Virus record (IMG/VR): IMGVR_UViG_3300025018_000315
Coordinates: 1-36,352 of that record
Length of the DNA: 36,352 nt
Origin: a virus
Taxonomy: Duplodnaviria; Caudoviricetes
Direction: 5' to 3' (one strand)
Part shown: positions 34,290 through 36,352 of the stretch, piece after piece
How the letters are laid out: every line of letters begins with the position of its first letter
Numbering within the stretch: the first letter of the stretch is position 1
Notes under the pieces: model-generated
What the model was told of the DNA's origin: nothing
What the model saw: only the letters and a program-made list of their open reading frames with translations
Databases searched by the model: none
Position numbers and translations under genes: made by a program

Positions 34290-34370
34290 CATGGTAACAT
34301 GAAGACATAAAAGGATAGATGTTACAAGACATAATAGAGTTATAACCACCTATCCCTACACTACATAAAA

Positions 34371-34442
34371 TTGACACTGTATAGATTTTTAGGTTATAAT
34401 CACTTGTGAAAGCGGACAAGTGATTTACATTGCTTATCCACA
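34371..34442 (+). promoter_or_regulatory. Inward-facing promoter at the IS left end, hairpin and DnaA box
   Basis: TTGACA (34371-76), 18-nt spacer, TATAAT (34395-400); hairpin cacttgt/acaagtg (34401-34422); TTATCCACA (34434-34442). Confidence 0.6.
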
Positions 34443-34662
34443 AATGCATACGTCCGTAAGTATGTTCAAATAAAAAAAATACTGTTATAGTAAACAGTAT
34501 CAAATTCCTTGTAGATATGAATAAATTAGTATTCAAAATAAATACTTTGTAATTTGTAATTTGTGCGGTTGCGTTTTTTTGTTTGTGTTTACACTTGACA
34601 CAATAGCGATTTTTTGGTAAGGTCTTGCAACATTACAAGACAGTCTATAAAGAGGCAAAAAG

Positions 34663-34729
34663 TGGACGTATGGAGATTTGAACTCCCAAGGTCTAGGATA
34701 GGAAGCCCGACTTGCACCGTGCTACGCCC
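34663..34729 (-). ncRNA. tRNA-like element with reduced D-arm (anticodon-like loop CTTCCTA, i.e. TCC/Gly)
   Basis: Acceptor GGGCGTA/TACGTCC + A; T-arm GGAG-TTCAAAT-CTCC; mini D hairpin GCA-CGG-TGC; bulged anticodon stem; no encoded CCA. Confidence 0.65.
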
Positions 34730-34760
34730 TGTTTTTGTCCCTTTATAGAACGTTTTGTTC

Positions 34761-35030
34761 TTAATCCTTTCAGTAACAATTACGAGCGGGGGTATCTAGT
34801 TATAGACGTTAGAAGCGTCTATTTCTTTTTTTTACGTGGAAAAAACTTAAACCACTTACCTGATTTAGAGAATATCAATGTACCATTACGATGTATTGCA
34901 TTGCATAACATCATACCATCTTCATCTAAAAAACAAATTTGCTGTTGCTTATTCATAAGCTTATTTCTCCTTTCTGCTGGAACACACCATGCAATGAGAT
35001 AAAGCTCGTAATTGTTACTGAACGGATTAA
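34761..35030. repeat. 27-bp inverted repeat (one mismatch) enclosing 216 bp
   Basis: ttaatcctttcagtaacaattacgagc (34761-34787) versus gctcgtaattgttactgaacggattaa (35004-35030). Confidence 0.92.
34819..34956 (-). CDS. 45-aa basic passenger peptide of the IS
   Basis: MNKQQQICFLDEDGMMLCNAIHRNGTLIFSKSGKWFKFFPRKKKK*; strong SD AAAGGAG upstream of ATG 34956. Confidence 0.65.
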   Translation of the reverse strand: MNKQQQICFLDEDGMMLCNAIHRNGTLIFSKSGKWFKFFPRKKKK

Positions 35031-35216
35031 TTTTTTGGATCAAAAAAGACCAAACACCTGACTCCAACCACATTTGATTTCACTTAGATAATCAATTTTG
35101 ATTGGTTGTTGACTCCCACCAAATTGCCTTGAGGCTATTTGCTGTGGTGGAGCCATGTGTATGGTCTCTTGGTAGTTATCTACAAGGTGAATAAATAAAT
35201 AAGAGTCAACGTAATT

Positions 35217-35245
35217 ACTATATACCTAATGTCTTATCTTGTCAA
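35217..35245 (-). promoter_or_regulatory. Sigma70-type promoter for the IS cargo
   Basis: TTGACA (35245-35240), 17-nt spacer, TATAGT (35222-35217). Confidence 0.7.
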
Positions 35246-35325
35246 GCTAATTTGATTTCTTTAGCATAACTGATATACTGCAACCAATATGAATAATCAA
35301 TACCTTAAAAACCTAAAGAAGATAA

Positions 35326-36186
35326 TTACTGCAAAATTGCAGAAAGAAGAACGTCAAAGCGAACCCTGTCGTTGTATCGGTTGTTGTAATGCCAAACAAA
35401 CGCATCAAGATAAGACTGAAGATACTTCTTTGAAATAACCTTGTGTGTACCTTTTACACTTCTTTTAACGTGTGACCAAAAACTTTCAATATTATTTACA
35501 TATACGTCCCCAGAGACGTATTGTTTTTTTGAGTGATTAACTGTTTGTCTATGGTAACCACTTCCATATCTATTTGAACTATCTGTCAATAATCGAGTAT
35601 TTTCTAAATCAATATTTTCATCAATAAACTCTTCAATAGTTATAGCACGAACATTTGGTACTTTTTTAGCACGCATTACTCCGTTACGCTCTACTGCTCC
35701 TATTACTTTACTTTTATTTGCCATTACAGAACTAGCATTTTTATTATCTTCTCCACCATATCCACGTCCACCAAAATATGCTTCATCCATTTCAACATCT
35801 CCACGAAGTCTAAAGTTACCTTGCCCTAAACACTCTCTAATTAGCTTTAGAATACGCCATGCTGTCTTATAGGTAACATTTAGCTGTCTTTCCATTTCTT
35901 TTGCTGATATGCCTGATTTTGCGTTACTAAAGATAAATATAGCATGAAACCATTTTAATAAATGAGTTGTAGACTTTTCAAATATAGTTCCTGCCATAGG
36001 TGCAATTTGAAAACGACATTTACTACATTGATATTGTTTACGTTCTTTTATTCTGTTATATGTTCCACCACATGAACATTCTTTTGTGTGAAGAACTGAA
36101 AATAAATAATCTAAACAAGCGTCCTCATTAGGAAAGTCTTTTTGAAAATCTATTATTCCATATTTCGTTTCTTTTGCCATATACAC
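35326..36186 (-). CDS. tnp: IS1595-family (ISXO2-like) DDE transposase
   Basis: Zn ribbon CSC...CSKC, HTH (ISAKEMERQLNVTYKTAW), VEMDEAY, LLTD and NNIESFWS motifs. Promoter TTGACA-17-TAATAT lies within the right TIR region. Confidence 0.95.
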   Translation of the reverse strand: MYMAKETKYGIIDFQKDFPNEDACLDYLFSVLHTKECSCGGTYNRIKERKQYQCSKCRFQIAPMAGTIFEKSTTHLLKWFHAIFIFSNAKSGISAKEMERQLNVTYKTAWRILKLIRECLGQGNFRLRGDVEMDEAYFGGRGYGGEDNKNASSVMANKSKVIGAVERNGVMRAKKVPNVRAITIEEFIDENIDLENTRLLTDSSNRYGSGYHRQTVNHSKKQYVSGDVYVNNIESFWSHVKRSVKGTHKVISKKYLQSYLDAFVWHYNNRYNDRVRFDVLLSAILQ

Positions 36187-36352
36187 CTATATTACTCTAG
36201 TATGATTATGTTGTCAAGGGATAGGTGTGGAGTTATACACAGACTACACTTTAAGGAGGGAAAGAAGTGTAGTATAATGAACATATCCGAAAGGATGAAC
36301 ACCTGAATGGAATACTAAGATACAAAGATAAACTGTTTAGATTATCTGGTAT

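Follow-up and report, generated by a model that had tools for sequence, protein, structure and literature searches.

To our knowledge, nearly all antisense-controlled toxins described so far are membrane peptides, and they come from a few model species. Among the hallmarks of type I toxin-antitoxin systems, according to one account (PMC6733600), are a long-distance pairing of the RNA's 5' end with its 3' end and a primary transcript that cannot be translated; in another source (PMC8167048), convergent antitoxins that overlap the toxin gene at its 3' end, with cleavage by RNase III, are given as typical, for example in txpA/RatA.

The DNA considered here is a virus record of 36,352 bases, analysed over its whole length and hereafter called the window. 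It carries genes for a portal protein, an ERF recombinase, a methylase and an M23 peptidase (Pfam); a 492-aa gene has no Pfam match and is taken for the terminase, judged by eye. Near one end lies an IS1595-family transposon, the passenger DNA of which is read here, with moderate confidence, as a cassette similar to type I toxin-antitoxin loci, the presumed toxin being a basic, non-membrane peptide. The cassette is likely an undescribed module of toxin-antitoxin style; no description of it was found in the literature searched, mostly articles outside subscription journals. Loci are designated below by L numbers and sequencing runs by X numbers.

The IS1595 element and its movement

The element is defined by the following features (window coordinates, strand, description).

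34345..36229, minus strand: IS1595-family element with passenger DNA, 1,885 bp, with terminal repeats, target duplication and empty site
34347-34368 / 36206-36227: terminal inverted repeats of 22 nt, found by repeat search
34337-34344 and 36230-36237: 8-bp target duplication, on both sides of the element
35326..36186, minus strand: IS1595 transposase (PF12762, E 2e-29)
34371..34400, plus strand: inward promoter with perfect consensus (12/12), just inside the right terminal repeat, in the direction of the predicted antisense RNA

Membership of the IS1595 family is given by the PF12762 DDE transposase, the terminal inverted repeats and the 8-bp target duplication, all of which are present; within the transposase the zinc-ribbon and HTH matches fall below the curated cut-off. 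The named close homologues of this transposase come from Patescibacteria. The sequencing runs in which it occurs derive from groundwater and aquifer metagenomes, and no RNA run is among those listed as containing it. In run X1, possibly the source sample, a contig of the empty site omits 1,893 bp, with 8 bases shared, at a depth of 32.7, and the filled form is present at a depth of 8.0; the empty site is thus about four times deeper, and the phage population is polymorphic for the element. In runs X2, X3 and X8 its ends are joined to different flanks. These other flanks, together with the empty and filled forms in X1, show that the element is mobile and carries the cassette along.

Some contigs of runs X2 and X3 have matches to the left terminal repeat and the transposase 3' end only (window 35411-36228, skipping 720-754 bases); they may represent either related elements or internal deletions. 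Among 114 related IS1595 elements, with passenger DNA of 0.5-3 kb, the terminal repeats of the clade contain a -35-like hexamer and there is usually one convergent passenger gene; by eye, many of these genes resemble methyltransferases, proteases or phage-type proteins. On one viral contig the terminal-repeat motif occurs five times within about 4.3 kb (L261-L265), which suggests that elements are stacked or nested in phage DNA, and at L107 (4366-5600) a second IS1595-type transposase, read by eye, lies convergent directly behind the first.

The cassette and its peptide family

The cassette comprises the following parts, listed in the direction of the minus strand.

35217..35245, minus strand: predicted sigma-70-type promoter of the cassette, TTGACA-17-TATAGT, 11/12 consensus
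35203..35210, minus strand: 5' segment, predicted antiterminator helix, pairing with 35108-35115
35042..35166, minus strand: leader stem with branched head, predicted terminator/attenuator, 25 bp (35142-35166 with 35048-35072)
35042-35047, minus strand: leader U-tract, which ends the final fold
35004..35030, minus strand: 5' arm of the ORF-enclosing stem, a 27-bp inverted repeat (96%)
34963..34974, minus strand: purine-rich Shine-Dalgarno (SD) region, partly within a local hairpin
34819..34956, minus strand: gene for a 45-aa basic peptide, predicted all-beta, pI 10.0, no membrane segment
34802..34832, plus strand: stop-codon hairpin with opposite-strand U-tract, predicted antisense terminator (terminator-like match)
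34761..34787, minus strand: 3' arm of the ORF-enclosing stem, with a C-rich stretch (34786-34796) ahead of it
34635..34758, minus strand: degenerate tRNA atop a long stem; tRNA part 34729-34663, with acceptor stem and T-arm kept
34595..34623, plus strand: convergent promoter with TTGACA, 17 nt and an extended -10, from which an antisense RNA spanning about 34630-34832 is predicted
34472..34500, minus strand: hairpin and U-tract, likely end of the sense transcript, read from the sequence and absent from the terminator scan list

Several of these parts had been named in a sequence-only reading of the same DNA. The consensus promoter, the 27-bp repeat and the strong SD with its 45-aa ORF are all present, and the small hairpin is confirmed at 34802-34822; its two leader hairpins (about 35110-35155 and 35031-35047) are found again in an early alternative fold, the final fold being the single 25-bp stem. 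The convergent promoter, the opposite-strand terminator and the element's own ends had been overlooked. Since promoter-like sites in the region are not above shuffles (15 found, shuffle mean 13.8), the call of the sense promoter depends on its own score and position.

A scan of 1.84 billion representatives with the peptide gave 31 matches at E<=0.001, from which five long proteins matched over partial stretches were excluded, leaving 26 short proteins; a profile search extended the membership, with 29 matches. Judged from its nucleotide changes, the peptide gene is truly coding and under coding selection: mismatches at codon positions 1, 2 and 3 number 3, 3 and 13 between L306 and L307 and 5, 7 and 19 between L240 and L308, and over all pairs of nine loci the changes amount to 411, 391 and 708, with the third position dominating. 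The AlphaFold2 model of the peptide has five short strands (pLDDT 84.5); hydropathy (best 19-residue mean 0.31, GRAVY -0.66) reveals no hydrophobic transmembrane segment, and the peptides of the family are basic and devoid of membrane segments.

The peptide has no Pfam family and no match among PDB sequences; in NCBIfam and PHROGs no family is common to more than one of 24 members, PADLOC matched none of five peptides, and no fold match at E<=0.001 was obtained in the PDB or BFVD, the best of a wide search having Z 2.0, with a 45-residue model as a weak query. The ESM Atlas returned only unnamed clusters, under 0.9, and searches in viral contigs and annotated phages gave no confirmed match. 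Basic micro-proteins like the second half of the family occur in a Bordetella prophage (L328, 1959-2102), a Parabacteroides plasmid (L310, 180-341) and two IS1595 elements (L081 and L054), some with other upstream structures.

Profile searches in overlapping sets of Patescibacteria genomes gave matches in 7 of 401, 4 of 146, 3 of 301 and 3 of 401, indicating a patchy distribution; the seven from the first set of 401 comprised two strong ones, a distant one and four weak ones (L243-L246), the last discarded as chance after they had been read. Nine close loci were compared, namely the window and eight in Patescibacteria genomes (L240, L304, identical to L241, L305-L309 and L311), together with three distant peptide loci (L242, L312 and L313). 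The parts do co-occur in other IS copies: all of them are present at L304, in a transposon only distantly related to that of the window, and at L307 they lie beside a transposase remnant.

The 12-kb regions around 11 peptide loci contain a transposase in two cases (intact at L304, a 3' piece at L307); including the window, three of the nine close loci are beside IS1595 and six have no transposase nearby. L311 adjoins tyrosine integrases and other loci lie among housekeeping genes; L240 and L308 share one syntenic chromosomal site, where the leaderless cassette has a cobalamin adenosyltransferase gene on one side and a cobalamin riboswitch on the other. Among the 114 distinct elements with terminal repeats the family peptide occurs in three (window, L241 and L054), all of which were in the search profile, L241 having entered via the peptide search; long RNA stems occur in six, plus a short hairpin in L208, and tRNA-like motifs in five by a crude scan. 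Given that only 3/9 close loci and 3/114 elements are linked, the cassette is a recurring cargo and not a part of transposition. The description of an IS1595-borne system is thus correct for the parts inside this one element and does not define the cassette, and the suggested role in transposition control finds no support.

Leader, stems and transcript ends

A leader stem of -35.6 to -47.2 kcal/mol followed by a U-tract is found in 10 of the 12 peptide loci (7/9 close and 3/3 distant), the exceptions being L240 and L308, which have the peptide and no leader. In the window the predicted antiterminator helix extends over 8 bp, more than any of the 22 non-cognate runs, and stepwise folding favours the early helix (-45.8 kcal/mol) in transcripts of up to 160 nt and the terminator (-53.1) at 170 nt. 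In five related leaders (L304, L306, L313, L242 and L327) a 5' segment forms 8-12 bp with the nucleotides immediately preceding the terminator's 3' strand, and this pairing exceeds every non-cognate one in 5/5; across all 12 leaders the upstream-to-head pairing is mixed, with the longest run ranked first in only four. By geometric reasoning on the short linker, the first pairing is incompatible with the full stem, and in the models the L304-type leaders therefore look like an antiterminator/terminator switch.

A leader model, R2, trained on four leaders (L304, L306, L313 and L242), found one new locus among 95 genomes, L327, with a 41-aa basic peptide downstream and a piece of an IS1595 transposase upstream; by eye, this peptide can be aligned to the family's second half, the profile comparison being weak (E 0.0012, probability 20%). 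Since R2 gave no match to the leader of the window, nor to those of L305, L307, L309 and L311, the kinship between the window and the L304-type leaders is one of layout only, not of sequence. Another model, R3, added no locus when applied to 22 and then 121 more genomes; conservation of the leader sequence is low, and a MAFFT alignment of the 12 leaders was too poor for modelling. No Rfam family matches the leader. T-box and Y-RNA readings were dropped, there being no Rfam match and no consistent anticodon pairing by eye. A contig of run X4 matches window 35136-35205 and then continues into other sequence, so that the sample may contain a related leader at another place.

Being small, basic and predicted all-beta, the peptide could be a non-toxic RNA-binding regulator of its own leader, acting in a feedback switch for downstream payloads such as a tRNA. 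The two mutually exclusive folds of the leader, with the antiterminator-type pairing best in all five related leaders, and the fact that the leader model alone predicted the peptide locus L327 would suit this explanation, which is possible and yet doubtful: peptide and leader occur apart, L240 and L308 having the former only and two sister IS1595 elements having the leader layout without the family peptide (L083 3577-3819, preceding an unrelated 73-aa ORF, and L164 4905-5136, preceding a tRNA only), and the convergent promoter of all nine close loci is left unexplained.

In 9/9 close loci the predicted folds show a hairpin that follows an A-tract and lies at the stop codon or next to it; on the other strand it becomes a stem with a U-tract. 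A convergent promoter with a score of at least 10 occurs in the nine close loci and in L242, starting 69-303 nt past the stop; the same score is reached by 10 of 120 control gene ends, and by 4 of 57 with long non-coding tails. The near antisense promoter of the window is of the weaker kind in the set (shuffle P 0.10), and the convergent promoter is weak in L312, L313 and L054, falling below 10 in the first two. An RNase III gene is present in 5/5 host genomes tested.

The 597-nt region folds with a z of -7.3, and 0/100 shuffles are as good. When the 5' UTR of each locus was paired with its own and other loci's 3' UTRs (23 pairings), the own-locus pairing ranked first in eight of the nine close loci and in distant L313, and third in L308, for which the control set includes its sister L240; it failed in distant L242 (21/23) and L312 (20/23). 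By a cruder count against 30 shuffled flanks, the pairs of the enclosing stem are above the mean in 9/9 loci and above the maximum in two (window and L304). The arms differ in sequence between loci and yet pair, with G-U pairs in L304. Indeed, leader stem, enclosing stem, stop hairpin and convergent promoter all recur with changed sequences, and the view of the repeat as an RNA stem holds, pairing being kept although the arms have changed.

The same cannot be said of the translational cage proposed for it. The SD region is only 15-53% unpaired in the models, though in most loci not owing to the 3' UTR; blocking the 3' UTR left SD accessibility no higher in 6/9 loci, with a clear gain only in L304 (in the window, 0.48 vs 0.44), which makes the cage doubtful. 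As SD accessibility is almost unchanged, the stem may be an RNase III target or a landing site for antisense invasion rather than a ribosome lock.

Beyond the 3' arm, the tRNA-like part of the window stands on a stem with arms 34635-34670 and 34723-34758 (folding z -4.4). ARAGORN detects no tRNA there by default, doing so only at a relaxed threshold, the best Rfam match has 13.2 bits (E 3.7), and there is no CCA end; the tRNA-like module of the sequence-only reading is thus present on its long stem, in degenerate form, below tRNA thresholds and as an optional part. In 4/9 close loci (window, L304, L307 and L311) the 3' arm is followed by a long stem that contains a tRNA or tRNA-like gene; those of L304 and L307, in the same place as that of the window, pass the Rfam threshold, which that of L311 fails, and tRNAs passing Rfam are likewise held in long stems in L164 and L290. 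An A at the wobble position of tRNAs is rare in bacteria. Such an A is seen in the stem-borne tRNAs of L164 (5201-5272, ACT) and L307 (1248-1337, AGT) by ARAGORN, and of L290 (3672-3744, ACT by eye). In other IS1595 passengers tRNA or tRNA-like genes occur without long flanking stems (L041, L048 and L056; L048 passes Rfam).

The three modules share one design, a stem of 20-36 bp with a payload in its loop, and could belong to a precursor transcript in which RNase III cuts the three long stems and frees a leader head, a mini-mRNA and a pre-tRNA, the ORF stem serving to activate or stabilise. This would agree with an SD that the stem does not hide, with RNase III in all five hosts and with the Rfam-grade tRNAs in such stems in L304, L307, L164 and L290; it would give no role to the antisense unit, and the tRNA is absent in 5/9 close loci and decayed in the window, so that the explanation is an improbable one.

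In type III toxin-antitoxin systems an endoribonuclease gene is preceded by tandem RNA repeats. A somewhat less probable proposal than a processed precursor is that the terminated leader RNA acts in a similar manner, as an antitoxin binding the peptide directly, and that the antisense RNA adds another layer. The order RNA - terminator - protein fits the type III layout, and the terminated RNA would allow a loop-to-head pairing; this second pairing, however, beats all non-cognate controls in only two of the five related leaders, two of the nine close loci lack the leader, and the window cassette has no tandem repeats in the leader, its 45-aa protein having no family match and being far smaller than type III endoribonucleases.

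Finally, that the 27-bp repeat is a DNA feature, bounding either a nested MITE or a segment that can invert, had been suggested by its near-perfect arms, both ending in TTAA, and is very improbable, since the arms differ between loci and in the relatives pair with other sequences, with G-U pairs and bulges, no similar arm exists elsewhere in 239 loci, the loci and run contigs contain no dispersed copies with conserved terminal repeats and no empty site for the segment, and the contigs of eight runs, which show presence and not absence, hold no joint that inverts or removes it.

Proposed control of the peptide and comparison with known systems

An addiction-type role, already proposed by the sequence-only reading, is also the best reading here, as a prediction with about an even chance of being right. 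The match of the type I toxin-antitoxin-like cassette to its class is drawn from the tiny conserved ORF, the 5'-3' pairing and the convergent unit ending at a shared hairpin. Three RNA controls are predicted to keep the message repressed: the attenuator leader, the 5'-3' stem and the convergent antisense RNA. Most transcripts would halt at the leader U-tract, the early alternative fold permitting some read-through, and the read-through mRNA would fold into a loop closed by the 27-bp stem. An antisense RNA of about 200 nt, starting from 34630 and ending at the stop-codon hairpin, would span the entire 3' arm, and the sense-antisense duplex would be cleaved by RNase III. Should the antisense supply be lost, through loss of the element or host shut-off, the peptide would be made and growth inhibited, probably by its binding to nucleic acid or the ribosome; the tRNA-in-stem would be an optional add-on, decayed in the window.

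Against the type I reading counts the peptide itself, which has no hydrophobic segment, unlike most type I toxins, and so does the fact that distant relatives drop the enclosing stem or the convergent promoter. Moreover, in the models the SD is not freed by blocking the 3' UTR, which leaves the stem unsupported as a translation lock, and the leaderless L240 and L308 at their syntenic chromosomal site suit a tolerated gene.

In a bolder and rather unlikely extension, ultra-small bacteria would use the cassette for abortive infection, as a module that senses phage and works almost entirely through RNA: a read-through factor of the phage, or host shut-off, would flip the leader, starve the antisense RNA and free a new class of nucleic-acid-binding micro-toxin, with the stem-enclosed tRNAs, some with the rare A34, as antidote or decoy. 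If this were true, the wider peptide family, with members in a prophage of Bordetella and on a plasmid of Parabacteroides, would carry the module across phyla.

For the type I-like cassette as preferred here, the interest lies in a defined, recurring unit of 0.4-0.7 kb on an active transposon, which joins an uncatalogued family of basic peptides to a likewise uncatalogued, switch-like leader RNA and occurs in Patescibacteria and their phages. Its parts are amenable to simple constructs and offer an entry point to a wider family of unannotated basic micro-proteins.

Compared with txpA/RatA of B. subtilis and the par system Fst/RNAII of E. faecalis, as described in PMC8167048, the cassette is alike in its small ORF, in the convergent, 3'-overlapping unit with a shared terminator hairpin, in its setting on a mobile element and in the availability of RNase III; it differs in that its peptide is basic, predicted all-beta and without a membrane segment, in its upstream attenuator-like leader and optional tRNA, and in that the antisense RNA is predicted and the toxin presumed. 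With aapA/IsoA of H. pylori, described in PMC6733600, it shares UTRs that pair around a very short ORF and a pairing conserved across loci; in the cassette, however, the pairing lies mostly upstream of the SD, which is not masked in the models, and the predicted antisense RNA covers the 3' UTR. SymE and RalR, also described in PMC8167048, set a precedent for antisense-controlled toxins that are not membrane proteins, act on nucleic acid and are under layered repression. The cassette peptide has no sequence or fold match and is much shorter. The leader has in common with transcription attenuators and riboswitch expression platforms two exclusive folds, one of them a stem with a U-tract, and differs from them in its lack of an Rfam match and its little sequence conservation. 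Lastly, the element as a whole resembles the transporter ISs of the IS1595 family, a term used in PMC3129680, in its transposase, terminal repeats, 8-bp duplication and passenger DNA; it stands apart in its RNA-rich cassette, where most relatives carry unrelated protein genes.
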